A stretch of DNA of 64,000 nt from a virus (Duplodnaviria; Caudoviricetes), in the IMG/VR virus record IMGVR_UViG_3300017967_004030, positions 264 through 64,263 of that record. One strand, 5' to 3'. A program made the translations under genes and the position numbers. Under the pieces are notes generated by a model. That model was given only the letters and a program-made list of their open reading frames with translations, did not search any database and had not been told where the DNA came from. This document shows positions 4,034 through 64,000 of this stretch, in pieces; the stretch's first letter is position 1; each line of letters starts with the position of its first letter.

Positions 4034-4928
4034 ATGGGACCAGTTAAAAAGAATAGTTGTAGGTTCAGCAACAAATGCTCACTGGCCTGTTCAATGTCCT
4101 ATATTTAGAAATCAAGAAAAAACAACATTGTGGAAAGAAACTCCTGTCCCTGCTGGGCCTGTTGACGAAAATATAATTTTAGAAGCTAACAAAGACTTAG
4201 ATAACTTTTCGTCAATCTTAAAAAACTATGGTGTAGTTGTTGAACGACCTACAGAACTTGATTTTCATTTATTTGACGGTATGTATAACTATTGCCCGAG
4301 AGACAGATTACTAATTGTTGGTGATAAAGTGATTGATGCTCCTATGCTTTACCCTACTAGAAAAAAAGAAATAGAAGCATTAAATCATTTGTTGGACACA
4401 GAAATAATTATTTGCAATGATCCGGAAGCAACCTTTGATGCTGCAAATATCTGTAGGCTAGGAAAAGATCTTTTATACTTAGTAAGCGAAAGTGGAAATA
4501 TTAAAGGTGCTAAATGGTTACAAGAAACTTTAGGATCAAAGTACACAGTTCATATATTAGATAATCTATATAGCGGTGTACACATAGATAGTACAATTAG
4601 TCCAGTTCGAGAAGGATTAGTTGTTGTAAACGGTGATAGAATTAATTCTAATAATATGCCAAGTGTTTTTAAAAAATGGGATGTTATTAGTATTTCGGGA
4701 AAAGATTTAGTGGCACAGCCTTTTATAGACTATCCTTACGCAAGTAAATATATAGCACTCAACTTTTTAGCAATTAATCCTAATACTGTAGTTTGTGATC
4801 CATTTCAAACAGTTTTAAGAAACGAATTAGAGAAAAAAAACATAGAAACAATCGGATGTGAGCTTCGACATAGCAGAACCTTAGGAGGTGGACATCATTG
4901 TGTTACACTAGATTTAGAAAGGAATTAA
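4014..4928 (+). CDS. Amidinotransferase (glycine / scyllo-inosamine-phosphate amidinotransferase family)
   Basis: NEWDQLKRIVVG, NYCPRD, FDAAN, HIDST and C-terminal LGGGHHCVTLD give the Asp-His-Cys triad of the family. Confidence 0.9.
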   Translation: MIYSVNEWDQLKRIVVGSATNAHWPVQCPIFRNQEKTTLWKETPVPAGPVDENIILEANKDLDNFSSILKNYGVVVERPTELDFHLFDGMYNYCPRDRLLIVGDKVIDAPMLYPTRKKEIEALNHLLDTEIIICNDPEATFDAANICRLGKDLLYLVSESGNIKGAKWLQETLGSKYTVHILDNLYSGVHIDSTISPVREGLVVVNGDRINSNNMPSVFKKWDVISISGKDLVAQPFIDYPYASKYIALNFLAINPNTVVCDPFQTVLRNELEKKNIETIGCELRHSRTLGGGHHCVTLDLERN

Positions 4929-14103: not shown

Positions 14104-17100
14104 CTACGGAAGCAAACCGCCTGATATTGTGAACGAAGCACCATCTGAACCTGCGCCTGTTTGCGCAACTCCTACAGTATAGAAACCAGTTGGAAGTTGA
14201 GCAGATATAGTATCAGTACCGTTTGCATCTGTTGTTCTACTACCAGATGTATATGCTGCGCCGTCTTTGTACACTGAATACGCATACGATGTATTTGGTA
14301 TTCCGCCTGTGATACTGACATACGCTGTCAAACCTACTGCTACTGCCGTAACCTGAATAGCATACGTCGGAGGTGGCGGAGGCGGTGGTGGTGGCGGAGG
14401 CGGAGGTGGTGGCGGAGGTGGTGGCGGAGGTGGTGGCGGAGGTGTTGAGACTGCCGAAACTATTGTAAACGCTTGATCTACTACAGTGCCATTTAAAACT
14501 AAATCTGCTCTCCAAGTACCTACTTGCCCGATACCTGTACTTGTACTTCCACTAGCACTCGAACTAAATAATCCTTGGAATACATTATCTTTATAAGCGT
14601 TTACGGCCACAGTTGTTGCATTGCTACTGCTCCAGGTAATAGTATAAATGTCTGATGTAGTTCCAGATAGAGGAGATATACTAACACTTCCAGTTGGTCC
14701 AGGGGGCGGTGGTGGAGGTGGTGGAGGTGGCGGAGGTGGTGGCGGAGGTGGTGGTGGTGCTGCACTTACAAAGATAGTATCTGTATCTAGTGTATCTGTA
14801 CCGTGCGCTAGTGCTGCTGTATGGATTCCTCCTGCAGTAGCAGTAAAAGTTCGAGAACCAGAAGTTCCATTAACTGGGCCAACAACTATACTATTCAATC
14901 CATAATAAGCATAAGCTGTAACTGTAGTGGTTGTATTACTACTTGTCCAGGTTACTGTTATTGTGTCTCCTACGTTATATACACCTGATCCTTCAAAATA
15001 AATATTTCCAGTTGGTCCTGGTAAGCCGACTGCAATAGTATCACTTGCTGTTACGTACTTTAATGTGTTAGTGGCATCATAATAAGATGATGCAATACTT
15101 GCTCTCCAATTGCCTGTATTAGCTAGAACTTCGTATGTTAAGGCGCCACCCGGTTTTGTAGTTGAACTTACAACTGCTGTAGTAGACGATGGCGGATATA
15201 TAGCAGCATAGGTAGTATTCGCACCAGTACCAGCGGTGTAATCAGCACGTATGGTTTCTCCTATAAACGCAGACGCAGCGTCAAACGCAATAGTTGGGTT
15301 TGGAATAGTTACTGCTTGATTAACAGTTAATGCTGGATTAGTTGATACTGTAATTTCTAGGGATGTATCAATTAAATTATATATTTTAATATAACCAGTC
15401 CAGGTACCTACTTGGTCTGCTACGCCAGATGCTGATCCTGACTTTGTGTTATACCTATTAGGATTAACATTACCTGATGGACTTATTACATAAATGTCAT
15501 ACCCAAATAAGGTTGCAGAGTTATAGCCGCCGTCCCAAGATAATGTAAATGAAGTAGAATTTACTGTACCCGATGTTGGTGACCAAGATATTGCAACATT
15601 ATCATAAGTAGGTGAGGGGTTCGCAACAGGTGTTTGGCTAGTGTCATTGATAGTTATTGACTGACTAGCAACTGCTCCGCCCGATGCTGTTTTTCTGACG
15701 TTAATTGTTTTAGATTCTGCACCTTCTGTGGTTGCATCTGCTATAGGACTTAAACTAAAACTTCCGGAATTATTAAACATCGAGAATGATCCACTAGATG
15801 TACTAAAATCTGATCCGCCCGTTACATCCCAATATAATGTAGGTGCACTTGCCCATCCTGTAGCTGTTACTGTATAAGTACCAGAACTTCCTTCGTTAAT
15901 ATTACTGGGTCCACTTATGCTATAAGTTGGTTCAACTGGAGTGACTGCATAGTATGCACTTGTACCGTCAGAAAAGTTAACAGTTATTGTTACACCTTCT
16001 CCGAAGCTTGTAGACATTGTAACAGGAAAAGTAGCTGTTCCACTAGCATTGGTTGTGCCCGACCCGCTATTGCCTGAAGTTAATTCTGTAGCAGACCAGG
16101 TAAAGTTTGTATTAGGGCGAGCATAATAGATATATACATCACCATCCGGATTTCCGGTAGCAGATACAATACTAACACTAGGACTATATACTGCTGTTAC
16201 CGTAAATGTAAGTGAACTAGCTAGGTCAGGGTTAGGCACTGATACATTATATGTTCTTTGTCCTGCTGAACCAAAAGATACTGTAGAAGTATAATTGCCG
16301 CTACTGTTAAAAGTTCCTGTAAATACGTCACTGCCCGAAACACTAAACGATCCATTAGGTCGACCTGTTATAGTTAAAGTTGCATTTTGATTTACATCAG
16401 GCGAACTAGGACTAATAGATATAGTGCTTTGATATACATCTGTTACAGTATAATTTAACGTTGTTGAGTTGTTACTAAATGCTTCTGCAATAGTAAAACT
16501 ATATGATCCTGCAGGGGAAGTTTGTATTTGTATTGTTGCCGTTCCATTAGAATCAAATACAAAAGCACTAAGGGATTGACCATTAATACTAAACTGTCCG
16601 CCGGGGAAACCTCCAGCTATAGTAACTTCTCGATCTGCGCCTGTCGCGCCTTCTATTACTGTAAAATTATTTCTACTTAAACCTAGCACAGCAGTAATTG
16701 TATAGTTTGTCGAAGCTGTCAAAGGGCTATAACCAGACACATTTTCAAAATGTGAAGTATATGTATAATTTCCAGGTTTTGCTTGTAACCTAGTAAAAAC
16801 TAATTGTCCATTTGCAGGAATAGTTGCCCCTGTTCCAGGTAATCCTTTTGGTACATCAGCCACAGACGGATTATTACTAGTCACAGAACCAAGATGTTCG
16901 GTATTAGGAGGACCAACTACAGTATGTGTGAACGAATTATACACAGGAGAAGATGTCGGATTAACTGTTGTACTGTTTACTCCCGAAGGTAAATCATCAT
17001 TAATAAGCGTTAGTGAAGTACTAGCACTATCACCTGTATCTCGATGTGTCCAAGTTACCGTCATAGTTTTGTTGCCATCATTGACAGATTCTTGTAGGAA

Positions 17101-19479
17101 CTGCTTTACAATACCTACATATCCGCTGACGCCGCCGCCCGATTGTGCTTTCGAACCACTTAATGCACTGTAGGTGCTAGTAAAGTCTCCGGCGGTTATT
17201 GTACCAGAAATCGACCAATCCCAAATATCTCCCGCGTTATAGCCGGTTGACTCACATTGTAATATAATAGAATCACCTTCATTAGCTGATGTTATGAGAC
17301 TTTGTAGTGCAGTACTCCAAAAATTTACTGTAATGCTTTTTGCAATTGGTGTTGTTGAAGTGTCTTGTATTATAGCAAATATAGCATTTGAACTATTGTT
17401 AGGTCCACTTACTCGTGTTCCAAAAATTTCGGATCCTTCAGTTGTAGAATCTGCAACAGATGTTCTAGTAAATGTGTATGAACCATCTCCTGTGTTTGGA
17501 AGATTAGTAATTGTTACAGATGCTGTGCCGCTCATAGCCCCGCCAACAAAGTCTGCTGCAACAGCATTTGTTCCACTAACTGCATTTACGTTAGACCAAC
17601 TTACTCCGCCAGTTGTAGCTTCCCAGTTGCTTACTGTTCCTGTATATGTAAAGGTTTTGTATGTAGTTTCGTCACCGAGAGTTGGAGAACTATATCCAGT
17701 AGTAACATCTAAATCACTATTTACTACAGGAACGTTTGCAATTTCTGATTTTCCTGTCCAATAAATTTTAGTGCTTTGACCATTACCGTCTGATTGAAGA
17801 ACTGTAAAATCATATGTTATGCCTGCACCTCTAGCATCCAACACTGTTGTTGGTGTTACACTTACCGGTACTGTAACGCTTTGTCCAACACCTATGGTAT
17901 AATTTTTACTTGCAACTCCGCTGGCTGAACTTACACCGTCGACATCTACAGTCCAGGCAGCAGGTCTGTTTGTTTCTTGAACTGTTATTGTTCCGCTACT
18001 ATTGCCGGTGTTTGTAACAGTAATGTTTGTACTTGCCGAAGTATTGACAATTACATCTCCAATATCCCACGCAGTATTTTGAGTAAGGTATGCACTTGGG
18101 GTAACGCTAAAAGTGAATACCGCCGGTGGTGGAGGTGGTGGTGGTGGAGGTGGTGGGGGCGGTGGTGGGACACTAGTATCATTAATAACTATACTAATGG
18201 AATCTGCACCATTATCTAGACTAAGTGTTAATGTTTCAGGACCTTCTGCAAGTTGATCAGACACAGGACTAATTACTAAAGAATTTAAAGTTCCAACTGT
18301 AAAGGCTCCTTGCAAAGGTATTCCAATGTCTGCTTGGCTAGTTCCTGTAATAGTATAAGGGATAATAGTACCATTAGAAACATTTGTAGTTGTAAGAGTA
18401 ATACTAGCACTGCTGCCTTCATTGACACTAGCAGCTGATCTACTTAAAGTATAAGACGGAACAGGTGGCTGGCTTGCACTTAATTGTACTATTGTGCTGC
18501 CCACAGGAAGACTTGCTGTGGGAAATACTACAGTATCGTAAGCTGTACCATTAATATTTACTGTTCCATCTGGAATTAGTAGAGATACAGAACTTGTCCA
18601 ATCACCTAATACAGCTTCATCTATCGAAAAACCTCCGGGATTGGGATCTGTAAATAAAACTTTAAATTGAATTGTTCTACTGCTTGTCTGTAATGCATAT
18701 AACTCATATGCACTTTGACTATATGTATTACCTGCATCTTTTCTATAACAAAGTTGATAACTACTACTTAAATTTGTAGCACCGATATTTTGACCTTGGC
18801 CTACACCTTTATTACTAAATGTACTATCGCCTTTAAAACTAACAACTCCCATATTGTTCATTTCGGTTTGCCAGTCTATTGTTTTTTGCTGATTAAGATT
18901 ATAGCTTACACTTGCATTAAATCGTATTTCACCACCTGCATTAAAAAAATGTCTACGAGCAGCATCTGAAGGGAAAGTAACACTAAAAATATGGTTTATA
19001 TAACTAGTCCAATTTCCGCTTACAGAATTTAAATATGTACTTGATATTTGTGTACCTGAACTATTATTTAAATTTACTGTAGCTGCCTGATCAACAGTGT
19101 CGATTTCAAATTTATCATTTTCAATTTGAGTCATTAGGTTTTCTAATGACTGGATATATGCGATTTCTATTAGATCTGCATTCACAGGATCATTTTCAAA
19201 ATCTCCAACAATAAAATCATTTATAGATACATTTCCAGCACCCACTTGATGTGCTCTACATCTAATTAGATCAACATAAAGATCTTCATATTGCTGTGCA
19301 GTTATTTTGTCTGAAGTTGGAGGATTAACAGTGCGAGTACCTTGCACATCGCTATTAGCATTTAAAGTTTCTCCGTAACCGAAACTTGGAGTACTAGCTA
19401 ATGATAAACCTAGAACTTTTTCTAACCTATTTTGAAGGTTGTTAAATCTAGATGCTAAAATAGTTGTAGTTGTAGGCAT
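14104..19479 (-). CDS. Giant virion fibre/structural protein with Ig/Calx-beta-like repeats and polyproline linkers
   Basis: N-terminal domain shared with 19538-24577 (VTF...RRHFFNAGGEIRF). Repeated units such as SVNEGSSASITLTT...EGPETL and NINEGSSGTYTVT...TEGAES. Three polyproline runs. Located in the tail module. Confidence 0.75.
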   Translation of the reverse strand: MPTTTTILASRFNNLQNRLEKVLGLSLASTPSFGYGETLNANSDVQGTRTVNPPTSDKITAQQYEDLYVDLIRCRAHQVGAGNVSINDFIVGDFENDPVNADLIEIAYIQSLENLMTQIENDKFEIDTVDQAATVNLNNSSGTQISSTYLNSVSGNWTSYINHIFSVTFPSDAARRHFFNAGGEIRFNASVSYNLNQQKTIDWQTEMNNMGVVSFKGDSTFSNKGVGQGQNIGATNLSSSYQLCYRKDAGNTYSQSAYELYALQTSSRTIQFKVLFTDPNPGGFSIDEAVLGDWTSSVSLLIPDGTVNINGTAYDTVVFPTASLPVGSTIVQLSASQPPVPSYTLSRSAASVNEGSSASITLTTTNVSNGTIIPYTITGTSQADIGIPLQGAFTVGTLNSLVISPVSDQLAEGPETLTLSLDNGADSISIVINDTSVPPPPPPPPPPPPPPPAVFTFSVTPSAYLTQNTAWDIGDVIVNTSASTNITVTNTGNSSGTITVQETNRPAAWTVDVDGVSSASGVASKNYTIGVGQSVTVPVSVTPTTVLDARGAGITYDFTVLQSDGNGQSTKIYWTGKSEIANVPVVNSDLDVTTGYSSPTLGDETTYKTFTYTGTVSNWEATTGGVSWSNVNAVSGTNAVAADFVGGAMSGTASVTITNLPNTGDGSYTFTRTSVADSTTEGSEIFGTRVSGPNNSSNAIFAIIQDTSTTPIAKSITVNFWSTALQSLITSANEGDSIILQCESTGYNAGDIWDWSISGTITAGDFTSTYSALSGSKAQSGGGVSGYVGIVKQFLQESVNDGNKTMTVTWTHRDTGDSASTSLTLINDDLPSGVNSTTVNPTSSPVYNSFTHTVVGPPNTEHLGSVTSNNPSVADVPKGLPGTGATIPANGQLVFTRLQAKPGNYTYTSHFENVSGYSPLTASTNYTITAVLGLSRNNFTVIEGATGADREVTIAGGFPGGQFSINGQSLSAFVFDSNGTATIQIQTSPAGSYSFTIAEAFSNNSTTLNYTVTDVYQSTISISPSSPDVNQNATLTITGRPNGSFSVSGSDVFTGTFNSSGNYTSTVSFGSAGQRTYNVSVPNPDLASSLTFTVTAVYSPSVSIVSATGNPDGDVYIYYARPNTNFTWSATELTSGNSGSGTTNASGTATFPVTMSTSFGEGVTITVNFSDGTSAYYAVTPVEPTYSISGPSNINEGSSGTYTVTATGWASAPTLYWDVTGGSDFSTSSGSFSMFNNSGSFSLSPIADATTEGAESKTINVRKTASGGAVASQSITINDTSQTPVANPSPTYDNVAISWSPTSGTVNSTSFTLSWDGGYNSATLFGYDIYVISPSGNVNPNRYNTKSGSASGVADQVGTWTGYIKIYNLIDTSLEITVSTNPALTVNQAVTIPNPTIAFDAASAFIGETIRADYTAGTGANTTYAAIYPPSSTTAVVSSTTKPGGALTYEVLANTGNWRASIASSYYDATNTLKYVTASDTIAVGLPGPTGNIYFEGSGVYNVGDTITVTWTSSNTTTTVTAYAYYGLNSIVVGPVNGTSGSRTFTATAGGIHTAALAHGTDTLDTDTIFVSAAPPPPPPPPPPPPPPPPPPPGPTGSVSISPLSGTTSDIYTITWSSSNATTVAVNAYKDNVFQGLFSSSASGSTSTGIGQVGTWRADLVLNGTVVDQAFTIVSAVSTPPPPPPPPPPPPPPPPPPPPPPPPPTYAIQVTAVAVGLTAYVSITGGIPNTSYAYSVYKDGAAYTSGSRTTDANGTDTISAQLPTGFYTVGVAQTGAGSDGASFTISGGLLP
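14368..14442 (-). repeat. CCN tract encoding 25 consecutive prolines
   Basis: 25 NGG triplets on the plus strand, in frame with the 1791-aa ORF, mixed codons. Confidence 0.95.
14701..14757 (-). repeat. CCN tract encoding 19 consecutive prolines
   Basis: 19 NGG triplets on the plus strand, in frame. Confidence 0.95.
18124..18168 (-). repeat. CCN tract encoding 15 consecutive prolines
   Basis: 15 NGG triplets on the plus strand, in frame. Confidence 0.95.
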
Positions 19480-19537: not shown

Positions 19538-22500
19538 TTACGGTAAAATGCCACCAATGCCGCCATCATTTGGTAGTACTTCGATGTTAGCCTGATCTAC
19601 AAATTCTCCATTTAACCATAATTGTACATAATAAAAGCCTTGAGTAGCAAAGTAGTACGAAGATGAACCGCTTGCACTAACTGTAGTTAACGGATTAAGG
19701 GTACTTACACCTTCTTTGCCTACTCTAATTTGGACAACTCCTGCTCCTTCACTTGTCCAAGTATACGATTCTATTATACCTGTTTCACTAAACGGAGCAT
19801 CCCAAGAAATACTTCCTGATGGTTCTGGCGGTCTAGCAATCATACTAGTTGAATCTGAAGCTAACTCTGTAGTTCCGTCAAATAATCTAACAGTCCACGT
19901 ACCTATTTGGTTTAAAGTTACAGGTCCTATCTGTCCTGATGCAGCAGTACTCACTGGACCAATTGTTTGTCCGTCTGGTCTAGTAAATGAATATTTAGGT
20001 GAATCGGCATTTGCTGTGGTCCACTCTATAAAGACTTGTGTTTCGTCAACATATCCATTAGCAGGATAAACATCTAAAGTTCCAGTTGCTTCTGGTGCAA
20101 CTACTGTAACAGTTGATGTATCAATAACTGTGCCATCTAATACTAATTCAAATGTATATGATCCAATTGTATTTAGAATAATTGTATCTGTACCTTGTGC
20201 TGTAACTTTATCATATTGTAAACGTAAACCATCAGGTTTTAATATATCCACTCTAACAGTTGACGCATTTGCCGCTGCCCAAGTATAGCTACATAAATTT
20301 GCACCTTGCATTTCAGCTGTAATTGTACCAGTAACTCTTGCTCCTACAGTAAATCCAACGGTATCAAGTGTTGCGCCTGTATAACTGCCTGTTCTAACTT
20401 GTACAGCCCAATTTCCTACAGGAGCATTTATAGGCACATCATAAATCCAATTTACGCTGTTACCGGTAATCTGTTGTACAGAAGATTGTGTTGTAGTGCC
20501 TAGCGGGTTAGTTACCGTTATATATACTAGTTCGCCATCCGGAACATTAGTTGTAGTAAGTGTGTATCTTATAGCACTTTGTGCAAACACATCAACGACC
20601 CTCGGACTTAATGAATAAGTAGGATCTGGAACATCTATTACTTCTCTTTGAACAGTAATAGTGTGTGTAGGGAATTCTCCACTAAAACCAGAAGCAGGTG
20701 CAGATATGGTAAATTGATATGTTTCTGCTTCGTCATCTGGAATAATTATAGCATAATAAACTAGTTTTGATTCAAAGTATTGTGTACCACGTGCATCTAT
20801 AGACCAAGTTCTTGGATTTGTAGCTACTCCAGAAATATTGCTCGGTTTATCAGAAAAATACACTTCGCCTGATACAACTGAATCTCTACCGTAATCTATA
20901 TAATTATCTTTATAGTCATCTTCAAAAATAATTGTAAGTCTACCACTTATTGTGTGTCTTCCGGTAGAAGGAATAGTTAGTGTGTCGGAAGAACCTTCTT
21001 GGAATCTGATAGGAGAAGCTGTATATTCATTTGGTTTTTCATTTATTACTATTTGTACAGTATCAGCTTCAATGCCAGGATAATCATATGTAACATTATA
21101 CACATAAGTACCAGCGGCGGTAATTTTGAATGTTCCTTCCCAATTACCTTGAGCATCAAATGTGCCAGTCTTTTCTTCTATTCCGTTATTAGCTCTCCAA
21201 ATAGTATTTGGTCTGCCTCCTGAGGCGGTTACTGTAAAGAATTCTCCTTTAAAGGCTGATCCCGGTAGTGACCATTTTACGTCATACTCTGGATCTTCTT
21301 CTCCAGTTGATGTATCTACTATTGCAACCCAAGCAACATCTAATCTAGGACCAGATCGGCTTGTTCTTATTTCAGTACCGAATGTTTCGCCACCTTCTTT
21401 TAGTAAATCCTCTGCAAGTGTTCTTGAAAAAGTTCCTGTATTATTGTTAATTGTAATACTTCCTGACAATCTAAAATCAGTAAAGTCGTCTTCTTCTAAA
21501 TAACGAGGTTGTCCTACAATATCACTATATTGTGTATGATTCCAATATAAAGTAGTTCCGTTTGGAACAAATGTAGTATTAACTGTATAGGTAAGTGTCT
21601 CTCCTTCATTGACAGAATCTTTGTTTGCTGATATACTGTATGTTGGAGTTCGATCTATTGCTTTTTCGTATGTAACTGGTATTACTATATTATCTATGCC
21701 TGCTTCATTAGCCTCTAGGAAAAATGTCAAACTTCCAGTAAAATTGTTGCTGTTAGTATTAAAAGAAAATTCTAGTGTAGGGGAGAAAGTAGGCGTTGCT
21801 GTGAAATTTAAAATAGAGTCCGGAGTAGTTGAAGTTGGAGTATAGTTTACTGGAGTTAAACTAGTAGTTACACCAGATGGGAAACTTGGACTCCAGCCTA
21901 TAACTTTATATTGACCGTTTTTAGCTTGGAACTGTATCTGTCTAGTAGTGATAGTAGTAAAATCAAGGCTCGCCGGGGCAGTACTTGCTTCTAAAGGTGC
22001 CTCAGGTGGATCTACGTTCTCTTCCCATTCAATGTAAACAGCTCCAACACCGCCACTACTTTGTCCTGAACTTGATCCGAATCCAATACCTGATACGTCT
22101 CCGCCTGTCGCTCCGCCGCCACCGCCGTATCTTCCGCCTGTACCATCTGAACCCGACCCGGAAGTTCCGTCGTTGCCACTGCCGCCTCCTGTTCCTGAAC
22201 TACCAGAAGGAGTACCAAATGCGCCTCCGACTGTATTTGTAAATGCAAGACCGGTACCGCCGCCGCCTCCAGCATAAAGAGCCGGTTCAGCACTACCGCT
22301 GCCGCCGCCACCGCCTCCAGCGCCTGCGCCGCCTTCTATACCTCGTATAGCGTCAATGCCTGTAAGATAACGGCCACCGCGGCCACCAGTCCCGCCATTA
22401 GAACCTCCCCAATATCCAGCGCCGCCTCCGCCGCCGCCACCATATTCGTAGTATCCTTGGCCGCCGGAACCGCCGTTTCCGCCAGTATCTCCATAGTAGC

Positions 22501-24577
22501 CTCCGCCGAGGCCGCCTGCACTAAGAACTGCATTGTTTACAATGTAGCCACCACGACGGCCGCCTAATCCTGCTATCTCTGTTTGAGATTTAAACCAAGA
22601 TGGTTGCCCGTTTTGTCCTAGTTGACCAAAACTGCCTGCGCCGCCAGCCCCAACTTGAACATCAAATTCTTGTCCAGGAGTAACTGTGATTGTTTTTTCT
22701 GCTGCGCCGCCTCCGCCGCCTCCGCCGCCGCCGGTACCTGAACCAGCGCCACCGCCTCCGATTACTCTTACTGTAAGTTGTGTTACATCATTAGGAACAA
22801 TAAACTTATATAATCCCGGTACATCTTCGAAAACTGGTGACGAAAGGTTAGATATATATTGCACTGAGGGTGGAGAGAATGATGTCTCATTAATTATTGT
22901 TTGGGCGCCATTACCAACCTCTAATACCACTGTACCAGTATCAGATCCTAATCTTAATTGTACATCGTATGTTTCGTCTGCACCATCCGTAAATGCGTCC
23001 GCAGTGGCAGTTAAACTAAAGCTTCCTTCTCCATTATTATCTAATGTAAATGATCCGCTAAGAGAATTACTTGTAAAATCACTTGCAGTTACATTATTTC
23101 CGACAATAGTATAAAACAGTTCTGTACCAGCATCTAATCCAGTTGTTTGAACTCCGTAAAATGCTGTGTATTGTCCTTCTTCGATAATTGTATCGTCTAC
23201 TGGATTTGTAGTGCTTACTGTAATTGCATAAGTAGGATTAGAAGGAGTTTCTACTCCTTCTGAATTGTCAACAATAGTAACTACTCCAGTTTGATCAACA
23301 AATCTTGTTCTAGCAGAATCTGTGAATAACCGTAGTCTAAAACTTTCATTACCTTCTGTAAAACTATCTGCTACTGTTGTTCTAGTTATTGTTCTTTCAG
23401 CTTGTGTATAAGCTTCTGATATAGTTATACTACCTTGTAACGTATTATCACTAAAATCGCTTGTAGTAATGCTACCGTTAACAACTTGTGTATCCCAATA
23501 CAAAGTAATCGGAAAATTATTTACACTTGCTGATACCACAAAATCTAATGATACAATGCGAGAACCGTTCTCGTCATCTTCATACATAGTTTTTTCAAGG
23601 TCAACACCGATGTTATATTCAGGGGCAGCAGGCGCAGGAGGAACATCAAATCCAGAAATAGAAGTTGTTGTTGCAAAATCTGGCTGGGCAATCTGAACAT
23701 AACTGCCTACAGCCCTATACATAACTATATTACTTTCTAATTTTCCGTCTACATTGTTGTCTACGTTTGTGCCTGTATCTAAATCATTAAATATAACTTT
23801 AAATTCAAGTTGACTTTCTGAAATTGCTCTAGCTTCTATAGAGTATCTATTTACTTCATATATTTGTTGATAAAGTCCGCGGCCAGTTTGTCCAAAAATT
23901 TCTTGATAACTAGATGTTAAATCATAGTTGCCAATGTTTCCTACAACTACGCTACCTTTTTTAGTCGACGTATATCCAAAAGAAATTGTTCCTACTTGAC
24001 TACAAATGTCAGCCCAATCTAATCCTTTAGGTGTATTTGCACCTGTATTTGCTGCTGTAAATCTAATCTCGCCGCCTGTATTGAAAAAATGTCTTCTATG
24101 ATCAGCATTGTCAAATGTTACAGTAAAAATATGATAAACCGAAGAGTTCCACGATGCAGATCTAAAATCTCTTAAGGATAGTTTTTGTTCTGCTTGAGAT
24201 GGATGTACGGTGAATTTGTCTGCTTCTACTTGAGCAATTAGTCTTTCAAAATCATCAAAACCTTTTTTGAATCCATCTGGATCTGTGCTTAACTGGCCTT
24301 GATTATTAATAAATTGACTAGTTTCTTCTGCAACTGTGTTTAAATTTGCTGTTACTTGCGCAATAGATAAATCGCCAGGTCCTACTTGGTGGACTCTTGC
24401 ATTTAGAATATCAGCATAAATGTTATTAATGTCTGATGCTCTAATTATACCTTCTAAGGCATTGACTTGTGAACTAGCTAGAACCTGTCCATATCCGCTT
24501 TGTCCTGAACCTGTCCCATAAATTAATGCAATTCTATTTTGCAGGTTATTAATATCAGCTGCCTGAATACTTGCCAT
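19538..24577 (-). CDS. Giant virion fibre/adhesin with Calx-beta/Ig-like repeats and a glycine-rich domain
   Basis: N-terminal domain shared with the 1791-aa protein, ADSFTEGNESF and SVNEGETLTYTV repeats, Gly-rich block at about 22025-22820. Confidence 0.75.
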   Translation of the reverse strand: MASIQAADINNLQNRIALIYGTGSGQSGYGQVLASSQVNALEGIIRASDINNIYADILNARVHQVGPGDLSIAQVTANLNTVAEETSQFINNQGQLSTDPDGFKKGFDDFERLIAQVEADKFTVHPSQAEQKLSLRDFRSASWNSSVYHIFTVTFDNADHRRHFFNTGGEIRFTAANTGANTPKGLDWADICSQVGTISFGYTSTKKGSVVVGNIGNYDLTSSYQEIFGQTGRGLYQQIYEVNRYSIEARAISESQLEFKVIFNDLDTGTNVDNNVDGKLESNIVMYRAVGSYVQIAQPDFATTTSISGFDVPPAPAAPEYNIGVDLEKTMYEDDENGSRIVSLDFVVSASVNNFPITLYWDTQVVNGSITTSDFSDNTLQGSITISEAYTQAERTITRTTVADSFTEGNESFRLRLFTDSARTRFVDQTGVVTIVDNSEGVETPSNPTYAITVSTTNPVDDTIIEEGQYTAFYGVQTTGLDAGTELFYTIVGNNVTASDFTSNSLSGSFTLDNNGEGSFSLTATADAFTDGADETYDVQLRLGSDTGTVVLEVGNGAQTIINETSFSPPSVQYISNLSSPVFEDVPGLYKFIVPNDVTQLTVRVIGGGGAGSGTGGGGGGGGGAAEKTITVTPGQEFDVQVGAGGAGSFGQLGQNGQPSWFKSQTEIAGLGGRRGGYIVNNAVLSAGGLGGGYYGDTGGNGGSGGQGYYEYGGGGGGGAGYWGGSNGGTGGRGGRYLTGIDAIRGIEGGAGAGGGGGGSGSAEPALYAGGGGGTGLAFTNTVGGAFGTPSGSSGTGGGSGNDGTSGSGSDGTGGRYGGGGGATGGDVSGIGFGSSSGQSSGGVGAVYIEWEENVDPPEAPLEASTAPASLDFTTITTRQIQFQAKNGQYKVIGWSPSFPSGVTTSLTPVNYTPTSTTPDSILNFTATPTFSPTLEFSFNTNSNNFTGSLTFFLEANEAGIDNIVIPVTYEKAIDRTPTYSISANKDSVNEGETLTYTVNTTFVPNGTTLYWNHTQYSDIVGQPRYLEEDDFTDFRLSGSITINNNTGTFSRTLAEDLLKEGGETFGTEIRTSRSGPRLDVAWVAIVDTSTGEEDPEYDVKWSLPGSAFKGEFFTVTASGGRPNTIWRANNGIEEKTGTFDAQGNWEGTFKITAAGTYVYNVTYDYPGIEADTVQIVINEKPNEYTASPIRFQEGSSDTLTIPSTGRHTISGRLTIIFEDDYKDNYIDYGRDSVVSGEVYFSDKPSNISGVATNPRTWSIDARGTQYFESKLVYYAIIIPDDEAETYQFTISAPASGFSGEFPTHTITVQREVIDVPDPTYSLSPRVVDVFAQSAIRYTLTTTNVPDGELVYITVTNPLGTTTQSSVQQITGNSVNWIYDVPINAPVGNWAVQVRTGSYTGATLDTVGFTVGARVTGTITAEMQGANLCSYTWAAANASTVRVDILKPDGLRLQYDKVTAQGTDTIILNTIGSYTFELVLDGTVIDTSTVTVVAPEATGTLDVYPANGYVDETQVFIEWTTANADSPKYSFTRPDGQTIGPVSTAASGQIGPVTLNQIGTWTVRLFDGTTELASDSTSMIARPPEPSGSISWDAPFSETGIIESYTWTSEGAGVVQIRVGKEGVSTLNPLTTVSASGSSSYYFATQGFYYVQLWLNGEFVDQANIEVLPNDGGIGGILP

Positions 24578-59396: not shown

Positions 59397-60239
59397 ATGA
59401 GACCTAAAAATTACCTCAACAACAAAGACATTTTAAAAGAAATACACAGATCAAAAAACACATTTAACAGCTACGTAGAAAAAGATTATGCCGACTATGA
59501 CATCATCTTAGAAAGCGTAGAGAAAGTTAACATAAGAACGATTGCAGAAGCAAAAAGAAATAAAGCAAAACGTTTATCTAACGAAGATTACGAAAAAAGA
59601 AAAATTAATGGTGAAAAAGTAAAACAAGCAGATTGCGAAGTTGATTATAAAACCATTACTAAAGAAGAAATAATCTTTCGTATAATGACGTATGATCACA
59701 TTCCGGAAGAGCCAGGACGTAAAAAGAATCCAAAAACTGTAGCTGATACAAAAACTAAACTAAATTTTCCACCTTTCCAGCATTATAAATTTAACGATGA
59801 CGGTGAACTTGTTTGTGTAGGCAAATCTCACTGGGTTGGAGGAATGGAGAATGGACATTTTTCTAAGGATCACGGCAAAGCAACTAACAAACTTGCACTT
59901 ATGTGGATGAAACTATGTGACAGATATGCAACACGAGGAAATGTGAGAGGATACACTTATAATGACGAAATGCGAGGACAAGCAATATTGCAACTTGCTC
60001 AAATTGGTCTACAGTTTGATGAGTCTAAAAGTCAAAACCCCTTTGCTTATTACACAGCAGCAGTTACAAACTCATTTGTGCGTGTTATCAACATTGAAAA
60101 ACGCAATCAAAACATTAGAGACGACATCCTCGAAATGAACGACTTAACACCGAGTTATACAAGACAACATCAAGGCGAATGGGAAGCTAGTGTAAAACGG
60201 AATGAAGATGCTAGTATTTCATCATTTTCAAAAGAATAG
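59397..60239 (+). CDS. gp55: Late-transcription sigma factor, T4 gp55-like
   Basis: NYLNNKD, N.RGYTYNDEM, FDESKSQNPFAYYT, RVINIEK. Adjacent to gp47/gp46 as in T4-like phages. Confidence 0.85.
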   Translation: MRPKNYLNNKDILKEIHRSKNTFNSYVEKDYADYDIILESVEKVNIRTIAEAKRNKAKRLSNEDYEKRKINGEKVKQADCEVDYKTITKEEIIFRIMTYDHIPEEPGRKKNPKTVADTKTKLNFPPFQHYKFNDDGELVCVGKSHWVGGMENGHFSKDHGKATNKLALMWMKLCDRYATRGNVRGYTYNDEMRGQAILQLAQIGLQFDESKSQNPFAYYTAAVTNSFVRVINIEKRNQNIRDDILEMNDLTPSYTRQHQGEWEASVKRNEDASISSFSKE

Positions 60240-61315: not shown

Positions 61316-63088
61316 ATGATTCGTATCAAAGATTTAACTGTAAAAAACTTTATGAGTGTGGGCAACCAGACTCAGGCTGTTGACTTTAATCGCGAACAGC
61401 TCACTTTAGTGCTTGGCGAAAACTTAGACCAAGGAGGTGACGATTCCGGATCCCGTAACGGTACAGGCAAAACAACGATAATCAATGCATTATCTTACGC
61501 TTTGTACGGTCAAGCACTGACTAACATCAAGAGGAATAATCTTATTAATAAGACAAATTCTAAAGGGATGTTAGTCACCCTACACTTTGAAAAGAATGGC
61601 GTAGATTATAGGATTGAGCGCGGTCGCTCTCCTAATGTACTTAAATTCTTTGTCAATGATCAAGAACAAGAACTAATTGACGAATCGCAAGGTGATAGTA
61701 GAAAAACACAAGAATCGATTAGTGAACTTCTTGGTATGAGTCACGATATGTTTAAACATATTGTTGCACTCAACACTTATAGCGAACCGTTTCTTTCAAT
61801 GAGAGCAAACGATCAGCGTGATATTATTGAACAATTGTTAGGTATAACATTATTAACTGAAAAGGCAGAATTGTTAAAAGAACAAATTCGAAATACAAGA
61901 GATACAATTACACAAGAAACACTAAAAATTGAAGCTATTCAAACTGCAAATTCAAAGATTGAAAATACTATTGATAGTTTAAAAAATAATCAACGTGCTT
62001 GGTTAGCAAAAAAACAACAAGACATAAAAAAACTTAGCAACGGTATTGATGAATTAGAGAAAGTTGATATTGATTTAGAATTAGATGCGCACGAAAAATT
62101 GCAAAACTGGACTGAATTAAACAATGCAATTACGGCTCTTAATAAAGAAAAAAGCACATTAGAGAGTGCATTGCTACGTGCTACTAAGAGTGTTGAAAAA
62201 GCCGAAAAAGACATCGCAAATCTTGACGATGCTACTTGTTATACTTGTGGACAAGCATTACACGAAGATAAAAAAACAGAAATTGAGTCAAGAAAAGCAA
62301 AAGAACTTAATGATGCAATGGCGTATCAAACCGAAGTAGGTAATAAACTGCAAGAAGTATTATCTGGCCTTGAAGAAATAGGTAATATTAACGGAAAACC
62401 GAATACGTTTTACGAAACTGCAAAAGAAGCATATGAACACAGAAACAACGTAGATAACTTAAAGCAAGCATTGCTAAGTAAAGAGCAAGAAGATGATCCA
62501 TATCAATCACAAATAGACGATTTAACAAATACAGCACTTCAAGAAATTGACTGGAATATCGTAAACGAACTAACTTCGTTTAAAGAACACCAAGAATTTT
62601 TGTTAAAGCTACTTACAAACAAAGATAGCTTCATTCGTAAAAAGATTATTGATCAAAATCTTGCATATTTGAACAACAGGCTCACATATTACCTCGATAA
62701 ACTAGGCTTACCGCACCAAGTAGTATTCCAAAACGACTTAAATGTAGAAATTACCCAACTAGGACAAGACTTAGACTTTGATAACTTGTCAAGAGGTGAG
62801 CGTAACCGTTTGATTCTTGGATTAAGTTTTGCATTCCGTGATGTTTGGGAAAGTTTATATCAACATATTAACTTGTTGTTTATCGACGAGTTGATCGATA
62901 GTGGTATGGATACTGCTGGTGTTGAAAATTCACTAAGCATCCTTAAAAAAATGGGCAGAGAACGTGACAAAAACATTTATTTGATTAGTCACAAAGATGA
63001 GCTAGTAGGAAGAGTTAACCACGTTCTAAAAGTTATTAAAGAAAATGGATTTACTAGCTACGAAAATGACATAGAAGTAATAGACTAA
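61316..63088 (+). CDS. gp46: Recombination ATPase subunit, Rad50/SbcC-like
   Basis: KNFMS, Walker A NGTGKT, coiled coil with CYTC zinc hook, LSRGE signature, FIDE Walker B, ISH. Confidence 0.92.
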   Translation: MIRIKDLTVKNFMSVGNQTQAVDFNREQLTLVLGENLDQGGDDSGSRNGTGKTTIINALSYALYGQALTNIKRNNLINKTNSKGMLVTLHFEKNGVDYRIERGRSPNVLKFFVNDQEQELIDESQGDSRKTQESISELLGMSHDMFKHIVALNTYSEPFLSMRANDQRDIIEQLLGITLLTEKAELLKEQIRNTRDTITQETLKIEAIQTANSKIENTIDSLKNNQRAWLAKKQQDIKKLSNGIDELEKVDIDLELDAHEKLQNWTELNNAITALNKEKSTLESALLRATKSVEKAEKDIANLDDATCYTCGQALHEDKKTEIESRKAKELNDAMAYQTEVGNKLQEVLSGLEEIGNINGKPNTFYETAKEAYEHRNNVDNLKQALLSKEQEDDPYQSQIDDLTNTALQEIDWNIVNELTSFKEHQEFLLKLLTNKDSFIRKKIIDQNLAYLNNRLTYYLDKLGLPHQVVFQNDLNVEITQLGQDLDFDNLSRGERNRLILGLSFAFRDVWESLYQHINLLFIDELIDSGMDTAGVENSLSILKKMGRERDKNIYLISHKDELVGRVNHVLKVIKENGFTSYENDIEVID

Positions 63089-63291
63089 TGGAAAATGATG
63101 TTCACGATCAGTTAGTCAAAGCATATTTAGAATATTTTAAGGCTAACGAAAAGTTTGAAAGGCAAAATAGTGTTCGCACACATAGATATGTACGTAAATG
63201 TTTACGTGACATTAGACAACTAGCAAAAGACAGAGCAGACGAAATACACGTATATCATAACACTACACGAAAAACCAGAAAAGGCACTTAA
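63088..63291 (+). CDS. Small basic helical hypothetical protein
   Basis: 67 aa, start overlaps the gp46 stop (TAATG). Arg/Lys-rich. Confidence 0.7.
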   Translation: MENDVHDQLVKAYLEYFKANEKFERQNSVRTHRYVRKCLRDIRQLAKDRADEIHVYHNTTRKTRKGT

Positions 63292-63316
63292 CTGTTTAGG
63301 TAGAAATACATAATGT

Positions 63317-63766
63317 ATGAATTGGACATATCAAGGTAAACAAATAGACACTATACCAGACGAGTATGAGGGTTTTGTTTACTTAATAACCAATATTACT
63401 ACTGGACAAAAGTACATAGGCAAAAAACTAGCAAAGTTTAAAACAACTAAGCCACCTCTCAAAGGCAAAAAGAACAAACGTAGAGGCTACAAAGAAAGCG
63501 ATTGGCGTGACTATTGGGGATCATCTGATAGACTACAAGCTGATGTTGAAGCACTAGGCCCAGAAAACTTCACAAGAGAAATATTATATCTTTGCAAAGG
63601 CAGAGGCGAAATGTCTTATCTAGAGGCTAAAGAGCAGTTTGACCGTCGTGTATTAGAGACAGATGAGTATTATAACGGAATTATTAATGTAAGAGTTGGC
63701 GGCTCAGACAAATTAAAACAAGCTCTATTAGAACACACCATCAAGGCAAAACATTCCAACACATAA
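63317..63766 (+). CDS. GIY-YIG family endonuclease (single catalytic domain)
   Basis: GFVYLITN...KYIGKK, YWGSS, FTREIL, conserved Glu (YLEAKEQ) and YYN. Confidence 0.8.
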   Translation: MNWTYQGKQIDTIPDEYEGFVYLITNITTGQKYIGKKLAKFKTTKPPLKGKKNKRRGYKESDWRDYWGSSDRLQADVEALGPENFTREILYLCKGRGEMSYLEAKEQFDRRVLETDEYYNGIINVRVGGSDKLKQALLEHTIKAKHSNT

Positions 63767-64000
63767 GGTTAGCGGGCCAGACTAGAAATACCGCTGTGGA
63801 AAAAGCATCCGTATAGGAGCACACGTAACACGTTGAGCGGCGTTCGGTAGTAGAGCGTTTGATTGACGTAGACTGAATGTTGGCTGTCGAAAAACTGCAC
63901 ATTGTACATAAAAACCGTATGCACTAGGAACGAAGCAACGGGTAGCGAAAGCGATGTCGACGTAGGTTGGGAAAGGTCAGAGCCCATTGTACAGCAGAAA
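63767..64000 (+). ncRNA. Candidate structured non-coding RNA of unknown family (truncated by the window end)
   Basis: About 47% GC by hand count over 63781-64000, clearly above the neighbouring genes. No credible ORF. At least seven helices, several with G-U pairs favouring the plus strand. Confidence 0.6.

Follow-up and report, generated by a model that had tools for sequence, protein, structure and literature searches.

A large structured RNA overlapping the end of a SegE-type GIY-YIG nuclease gene in marine giant T4-like phages

The nuclease locus and the extent of the RNA

The DNA analyzed here, referred to as the window, is a stretch of 64,000 nucleotides (nt) that reaches to the end of one virus record of 64,263 nt (IMGVR_UViG_3300017967_004030), for which CheckV gives a completeness of 16%. 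Toward the contig end, the genes follow in the order gp55-like sigma factor, gp47-like phosphoesterase, gp46-like SbcC/Rad50 ATPase, an open reading frame (ORF) of 67 amino acids (aa), and a GIY-YIG nuclease, behind which lie 234 noncoding bases (Table 1). The present analysis shows that positions 63743–64000 are the first ~258 nt, or about 55%, of a structured noncoding RNA (ncRNA) of ~400–600 nt, which is encoded on the + strand, overlaps the end of the nuclease ORF, and is cut by the end of the contig.

The contig has no terminal overlap and can thus not be extended from itself, and the 3′ part of the RNA is seen in relatives. A search with the nuclease protein returned at least 599 loci on viral contigs, 80 of which were kept (L001–L080). 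The order gp47, gp46, 67-aa ORF, nuclease is found in 78 of these, the remaining two having no upstream sequence, and conservation continues into the DNA 3′ of the nuclease stop codon in 72 loci out of 80. The locus L003 is 98.7% identical to the 234 bases of the window, without gaps, and holds the whole element, from 4451 to ~4906 (~455 nt up to the last hairpin), followed by a separate gene. Altogether, 173 loci bear the core of the RNA, 106 of them at full length; the 66 unique RNAs among the latter, 406–605 nt long with 30 nt of flank included, constitute alignment A1, to which the counts on the fold refer unless another number is given.

An exact 21-nt word from the core occurs in at least 120 viral contigs, which in part overlap with those from the protein search, in at least 119 metagenome contigs, and in three contigs of metagenome-assembled genomes (MAGs) of GTDB. 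These last three (L082, L083, and L084, of 72.8, 335, and 153 kilobases (kb), respectively) come from MAGs labeled Crocinitomicaceae and Neomarinimicrobiota. All three carry the nuclease gene in addition to the core word, and L082 and L084 also carry a phage gp46. They are probably phage contigs binned into MAGs and hence provide no evidence on the host.

Table 1. Features of the locus in the window. Paired strands are separated by a slash.
Feature	Position	Strand	Description
gp55-like late sigma factor	59397–60239		280 aa; phrog_12791, E 1e-79
67-aa ORF	63088–63291		between gp46-like gene and nuclease gene
SegE-type GIY-YIG nuclease gene	63317–63766	+	149 aa, catalytic domain only
Visible 5′ part of structured RNA	63743–64000	+	last ~24 nt of ORF overlapped; contig end cuts RNA
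PK1, 5′ strand CCAACA	63756–63761	+	in last codons of nuclease ORF
H1	63771–63795 (63771–75/63791–95)	+	hairpin
H2	63796–98/63822–24	+	encloses H3; middle pair UA52/AU13
H3	63805–10/63816–20	+	hairpin inside H2
H4	63830–36/63863–69	+	encloses H5
H5	63839–45/63853–59	+	subtype-specific, inside H4
H6	63871–63888 (63871–75/63884–88)	+	98.2% paired, 4/5 pairs compensatory; loop forms PK1
PK1, 3′ strand TGTTGG	63878–63883	+	loop of H6
H7, long-range helix	63895–98 and 63904–08 with 63988–92 and 63994–97	+	
H8	63915–63941	+	hairpin, near-invariant loop CACTAGGAACGAAG
H9	63945–63952	+	minimal GC-GAAA-GC hairpin; 89% of cells paired
Ultraconserved core block	63953–63992	+	identical in most relatives; holds H10 5′ strand and H11
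H10, 5′ strand	63962–67	+	99.7% paired, 2 compensatory pairs; partner past contig end
H11	63968–71/63983–86	+	invariant hairpin

Comparative evidence for the fold

The curated structure of the RNA comprises 90 base pairs. In the alignment, 85.9% of the cells are paired, compared to 77.5% in shuffled alignments, and the covariation score is 0.263, compared to 0.129; none of 500 shuffles reaches either value. Slid controls give only 36–41% paired cells. RNAalifold predicts 61 pairs from the same sequences, 28 of them with compensatory changes, and such changes are found in about a dozen helices. A first-pass annotation of this DNA, made from the letters of the window alone, had proposed a large structured ncRNA behind the nuclease gene, and the pairing and covariation across homologous GIY-YIG loci bear this out. 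The support for the fold is comparative only, because the folding energy of the single sequence gives no signal, being no better than chance on both strands (z of +0.62 for the + strand and +0.76 for the − strand). The RNA is assigned to the + strand because G-U pairs are frequent on that strand.

The core helices were counted on 99 sequences. Three helices, H7a, H15, and H16a (3′ part), score poorly in the pair count due to the misalignment of their sequence classes by MAFFT, and since this misalignment spoils the pair count of H7, that helix was evaluated by duplex energy; its cognate duplexes average −10.8 kcal/mol, compared to −6.9 kcal/mol for non-cognate ones. A naive all-against-all helix scan gave an output too noisy for use.

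No coding signal is found in the alignment: there is no codon 3-periodicity and no conserved open frame, and the gap lengths modulo 3 are distributed as 1261/358/316. The raised GC content and the lack of a good ORF 3′ of the nuclease gene, both pointed out at first reading, are as described. The GC content of 63767–64000 is 48.7%, compared to a window mean of 33.9%, which places it in the top 1.65% of 234-nt windows, and no ORF is conserved in this stretch. The only GC islands of the window above that of the RNA are coding Pro/Gly tracts. Two giant ORFs on the − strand, at 14104–19479 and 19538–24577 (1791 and 1679 aa, respectively), contain the long poly-Pro and Gly-rich tracts that form these islands.

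Of the nine helices that had been drawn from the single sequence, seven are confirmed by the relatives, one of these in a subtype only and another as a hairpin of variable length; one more is invariant, and one is without support. AGCGG/CCGCT (H1) is paired in 98.8% of the cells with two compensatory pairs, ACGTTGA/TTGACGT (H4) in 98.3% with three, and CCGT-A-TGC/GCA-ACGG (H8) in 98.1%, also with three, while TCC/GGA is part of hairpin H3, in which all five pairs show compensatory changes. The possible long-range TGTACA pair corresponds to H7 and is longer than had been seen, its inner part being paired in 98.8% of the cells with compensation in five of five pairs. GGCGTTC/GAGCGTT (H5) holds in the subtype with a short insert inside H4 but not in the other sequences, which have a two-hairpin insert at this place. 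The minimal hairpin GC-GAAA-GC (H9) is a site of variable length, where relatives insert up to ~100 alignment columns. TGGG/CCCA (H11) never varies and is therefore neither supported nor refuted.

The helix without support is AATGT/ACATT, which is paired in 69.5% of the cells with zero compensation. Letters of this helix belong to the loop of H6, which pairs instead with the tail of the nuclease ORF, forming a pseudoknot (PK1) in which all six pairs are present in 64 of 64 sequences and three are compensatory (CG50/AT11/GC3, CG59/TA5, and AT53/GC11). Furthermore, eight loci have an insertion of 100–300 nt after the nuclease gene, and in all eight the final ~23 nt of the ORF are found on the RNA side of the insertion rather than on that of the gene. 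As PK1 pairs the ORF tail, and this tail stays joined to the RNA in the insertion loci, the RNA begins inside the ORF and not 4 nt after the stop codon, where its start had first been placed.

A second pseudoknot is formed by H10, which crosses the long-range helix H7. The core model R1 matches 63952–64000 with 50.7 bits (E 8.6e-10), the match being cut at its 3′ end. The 21-nt core word is found unchanged where the nuclease protein is 53–58% identical, and the core is better conserved than the neighboring proteins.

The overlap with the ORF raises the alternative that the RNA acts in cis as a 3′ element of the mRNA for the nuclease, such that the knot at the stop codon and the folded 3′ region would control termination, stability, or decay, and hence the dose of the nuclease. 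A ribosome finishing the ORF must unfold PK1, because PK1 uses the last codons, and the RNA adjoins the ORF without a gap. However, more than 400 nt, two pseudoknots, and an ultraconserved core far exceed the needs of known 3′ stabilizers, the ORF tail remains with the RNA rather than with the nuclease in the insertion loci, and the core is more conserved than the nuclease itself. We consider this explanation unlikely.

Past the contig end, the relatives show an invariant core block, hairpins H13 and H12, and a terminator-like hairpin (L003 4795–4816), as well as a conserved hairpin, capped by a GNNA loop, in which G-A pairs occur in tandem, followed by the last hairpin. Within 80 nt after the last hairpin, a late-promoter-like word, which we take to resemble the T4 late-promoter consensus, occurs in 50 of 76 unique tails, compared to 4 of 76 controls.

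The 3′ part also contains twin single-stranded words, located at L003 4716–4726 (n266–276) and 4779–4790 (n329–340). Their 7-mers are identical to each other in 76 of 78 unique RNAs, and the five variant forms are altered in both words at once, a co-change that is also visible in the mutual information of 99 sequences. The covariation of the two words is thus of an identity type and not complementary. A complement to them was sought in the AT-rich spacer, where the short matches found are inconsistent.

The nuclease gene and the RNA are covered by contigs from four metatranscriptome runs, each run from a different study. A contig of 319 nt among them (depth 19.7) lies on L003 4470–4787 with five mismatches. 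The uncovered parts, and the fact that the contigs of three runs stop near L003 4783–4787, were considered as possible RNA ends, but they fit assembly breaks at places where the relatives diverge.

Known RNA families and the host phages

In Rfam 15, the window, a full-length relative, and 11 other loci have no match at the gathering threshold or at E up to 10; weak hits to L17DE, snoTBR7, mir-299, and MIR1120 are at chance level, and the only genuine matches are those of two further loci, L067 and L079. Neither ARAGORN nor Rfam detects a tRNA or tmRNA in the window and 10 loci, and no Rfam model of GOLLD, ROOL, or other curated large RNAs is matched. The statement of the first-pass annotation that the RNA is not a tRNA, tmRNA, RNase P RNA, or intron accordingly stands.

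The first-pass annotation had also mentioned a ribozyme, and a related possibility is that the RNA is the relic of a self-splicing intron that formerly carried the GIY-YIG gene. Group I introns of phages often contain GIY-YIG genes, and the core of the RNA is both pseudoknotted and invariant. On the other hand, the full element matches no Rfam intron (group I or group II) or ribozyme model at E up to 10, and there is no split host gene: upstream, both the gp46-like gene and the 67-aa ORF are intact, and the RNA is followed by a separate gene that has a late-promoter-like site of its own. A ribozyme or intron relic is thus extremely unlikely.

These two are divergent sister loci, which match the Polynucleobacter-1 family (RF01718, cut-off 37 bits) at L067 547–687 with 71.8 bits and at L079 4438–4579 with 67.4 bits. 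In both, the nuclease gene is the same, the match begins precisely at its stop codon, and the first 141 nt of the RNA are covered. Both loci have the pseudoknot between the ORF tail and a loop at the same offset (−11), although with different letters, and both have matched twin words and 3′ hairpins. Their core differs, as R1 matches neither of them. Conversely, RF01718 has no match at E up to 10 in the window (63000–64000), in L003 (4400–5000), in L201–L203, or in the RNA locus of G000–G003. The RNA of the window is therefore a relative of RF01718 rather than a member of the model: the sister loci share its architecture in position, pseudoknot, twin words, and 3′ hairpins, features that lie outside the Rfam definition and hence argue for kinship and not for membership, while the window scores no match. 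In addition, the start of its first hairpin and the loop of H8 appear, by eye, to resemble the RF01718 consensus.

The RF01718 motif, with its 141 nt and from one subtype, is in turn just the 5′ domain of a phage RNA that is longer, at roughly 500 nt or above; the family of the window extends over 400–600 nt with two pseudoknots. The novelty claimed at first reading consequently holds insofar as the window has no Rfam match, but it is qualified by the sister loci that match this orphan family. Polynucleobacter-1 appears in Weinberg et al. 2010 (PMC2864571) as a table entry, 'Burkholderiales, fresh water/estuary', and the passage on it states no link to a phage or a nuclease.

A similarity search of 50,697 deposited phage records gave no match for the part of the RNA in the window, the full RNA, or the RF01718-type RNA. 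Large RNAs with knotted folds and near-invariant cores are rare, and once solved they usually turn out to be ribozymes, riboswitches, or parts of central machines. GOLLD and ROOL, as portrayed in the relevant part of PMC12286853, are likewise large phage or prophage RNAs with complex folds that look protein-free, have an unknown function, and came from comparative genomics. Compared to them, the RNA of the window is smaller, is tied to one gene neighbor, and gives no evidence of self-assembly.

The phages that carry this RNA family are marine giant T4-like phages and form an abundant group without cultured members. Since sister contigs of 167–236 kb are rated 46–66% complete, the genomes of the group are estimated at ~360–400 kb. 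The nearest gp46 in deposited phages, those of the PA5oct group and of Sinorhizobium phage Phosso, are merely 48–49% identical. The gp55 homologue of the window exceeds in length the profile of the common family, phrog_234, which has 181 positions.

Contig breaks are frequent in or at the RNA. Of 77 viral loci, 22 stop less than 350 nt past the nuclease stop codon, and at least eight metagenome loci start 174–197 nt before the core word, that is, near the start of the RNA. Such breaks likely result from strain mixtures at the borders between conserved and variable sequence, although tandem amplification may also contribute. They could also be seen, as a weak indication, in favor of an origin-type RNA, the transcript of which pairs back onto its own DNA and primes replication, and another weak indication is that the RNA adjoins the replication and recombination genes gp46 and gp47. 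However, any RNA matches its own template, such that the covariation and the twin words give no argument for this function, and the examined contigs hold a single copy of the element each. We consider an origin RNA very unlikely.

The nuclease and its linkage to the RNA

The nuclease matches PF19835 with an E of 1.4e-34 and 119.5 bits (cut-off 25), and the 148-position profile of phrog_447 with an E of 6.7e-39. Its conserved Tyr, Tyr, Arg, Glu, and Asn, which are presumably the catalytic residues, together with the domain score above the cut-off, place it in the SegE type. In a set of 133 unique relatives of 138–152 aa, the residue of the window is kept in at least 98% at F20-V21-Y22, Y33, G35, R87, E88, E103, and N120; the basic insert is at least 90% conserved, and the last ~25 residues are variable. 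Solved structures were sought by sequence, and none was found. The protein had been described as a minimal nuclease that lacks a DNA-binding domain and has a basic insert. This is correct, but the small size is normal for phrog_447 and the insert is part of the family domain.

Linkage between the two genes is complete in all loci that allow it to be assessed. Among the viral loci found by the RNA word alone, 112 are testable, and in all 112 the nuclease gene lies immediately upstream of the RNA; another seven start too close to the word. Among 80 listed metagenome loci, 23 have too little upstream sequence, and the gene is present upstream in the 57 others, recognized in 52 by a degenerate DNA word for the YYNGII motif and in five by ORF listing. 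An RNA without the nuclease gene was thus not seen in 169 testable loci, and the linkage across genomes that the first-pass annotation had asked for is confirmed. In L224 (738–2455) and L257 (4802–6659), a radical-SAM gene takes the place of gp46 and the 67-aa ORF in front of the pair, which is therefore kept in at least two gene contexts. In L258 (11379–11660) and L243 (1–210), the nuclease gene is followed first by a 93-aa Cys-rich ORF that belongs to no Pfam family and only then by the RNA. In L258, the small ORF that precedes the nuclease gene is Hc1 histone-like (PF07432). The same identity was considered for the 67-aa ORF of the window, which is not detectably Hc1-like.

Homologues of ~140 aa are found in the phages Melnitz (70% identical), S-SRM01, S-H38, and phiN3, with just 28–148 nt behind them, and a scan of the whole Melnitz genome with the core model of the RNA gives no match, from which it follows that the nuclease does not need the RNA.

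These observations bear on a partnership of the two products, in which the RNA would bind the GIY-YIG protein as a scaffold, an antitoxin-like inhibitor, or a targeting subunit, and each of the twin words would serve one of two protein copies or one of two target strands. In its favor, the pair is never separated in any testable locus and in two upstream contexts, the two genes physically overlap, and the protein has no DNA-binding domain of its own but a conserved basic insert. These arguments are countered by the existence of the nuclease family without the RNA in the four cultured phages, by the other ORFs inserted between nuclease and RNA in eight loci in addition to L258 and L243, and by the fact that the insert belongs to the family domain. 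A variable single-stranded guide segment of useful length, of the kind that would make the RNA OMEGA-like, is moreover absent from alignment A1, the variable parts of the RNA being a hairpin loop of ~10 nt, a self-paired hairpin of variable length, and the two 7-nt words. The ribonucleoprotein or guide role advanced in the first-pass annotation accordingly finds no support, and we attribute a low probability to such a partnership.

A more far-reaching version is that the RNA and the domain-only nuclease form one machine, in which the RNA would provide substrate choice or control and the twin words would pair with two target copies, or else that the ornate RNA assembles with itself and uses the twin words as contacts. 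In the HEARO/OMEGA systems (IscB, TnpB), a small nuclease gene has a structured guide RNA beside it that overlaps its end, and the arrangement here is alike in this respect. It differs in the GIY-YIG fold, the absence of transposon ends and of a variable guide, a locus that is fixed in the phage genome, and a nuclease family that also exists without the RNA. If true, the machine would be the first RNA-directed or RNA-gated GIY-YIG enzyme, but we find this version quite doubtful.

The reading that we favor, with a probability of roughly 0.55, is that the structured RNA has an autonomous gene, which is interlocked with the gene for a Seg-type endonuclease, in analogy to segB and the tRNA genes. 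According to PMC2330249, T4 segB is located in the tRNA cluster; PMC13096335 reports that SegB amplifies tRNA and anti-defense loci and that segB genes are enriched beside tRNAs. Between them, the two papers describe preferred inheritance and segmental amplification of the adjoining RNA genes. The present locus is similar in that a free-standing Seg-type GIY-YIG gene of a T4-like phage adjoins structured RNA, as in T4 and T6. Unlike segB, the nuclease here is of the SegE type with the catalytic domain only, its neighbor is one large knotted RNA rather than tRNAs, and the RNA overlaps the ORF.

Under this interpretation, the RNA would either form the 3′ part of the nuclease transcript, made early or in the middle period, or have its own start within the tail of the ORF, and would end at the terminator-like hairpin or hairpins, ahead of the late-promoter-like site, which would serve the next gene. 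It would act on its own and not as a guide, its core and the two identical single-stranded words of 7–9 nt being presented to some partner. The nuclease would be a Seg-type free-standing endonuclease, homing-like but probably domesticated, that secures the inheritance or amplification of the interlocked RNA gene, as T4/T6 SegB does for the tRNA cluster.

Several points weigh against this interpretation. An autonomous RNA does not account for the fact that the twin words change in parallel. Transcription is only suggested, because contigs from RNA libraries may contain DNA and show neither the ends nor the strand, and a search of the evidence for how the 5′ end of the RNA arises gave neither a promoter nor a processing site. 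PK1 lies 3–8 nt before the stop codon, which makes a cis role on the nuclease mRNA possible. Finally, the patchy presence of a homing endonuclease is not observed, the gene being found in every testable viral and metagenome locus; the nuclease is ubiquitous and conserved, unlike a patchy selfish homing gene, and a functional tie to the RNA fits equally well.

The RNA is common in marine giant-phage DNA, with hundreds of contigs in two collections, and is without a match in the deposited phage records. Through its sister loci, an orphan Rfam motif from 2010 is recognized as the 5′ domain of a phage RNA that is much larger and keeps a constant gene partner. After segB and the tRNAs, the pair would represent the second natural case in which an RNA gene is linked to a Seg-type endonuclease, and the co-changing twin words provide a direct handle for finding the partner of the RNA.
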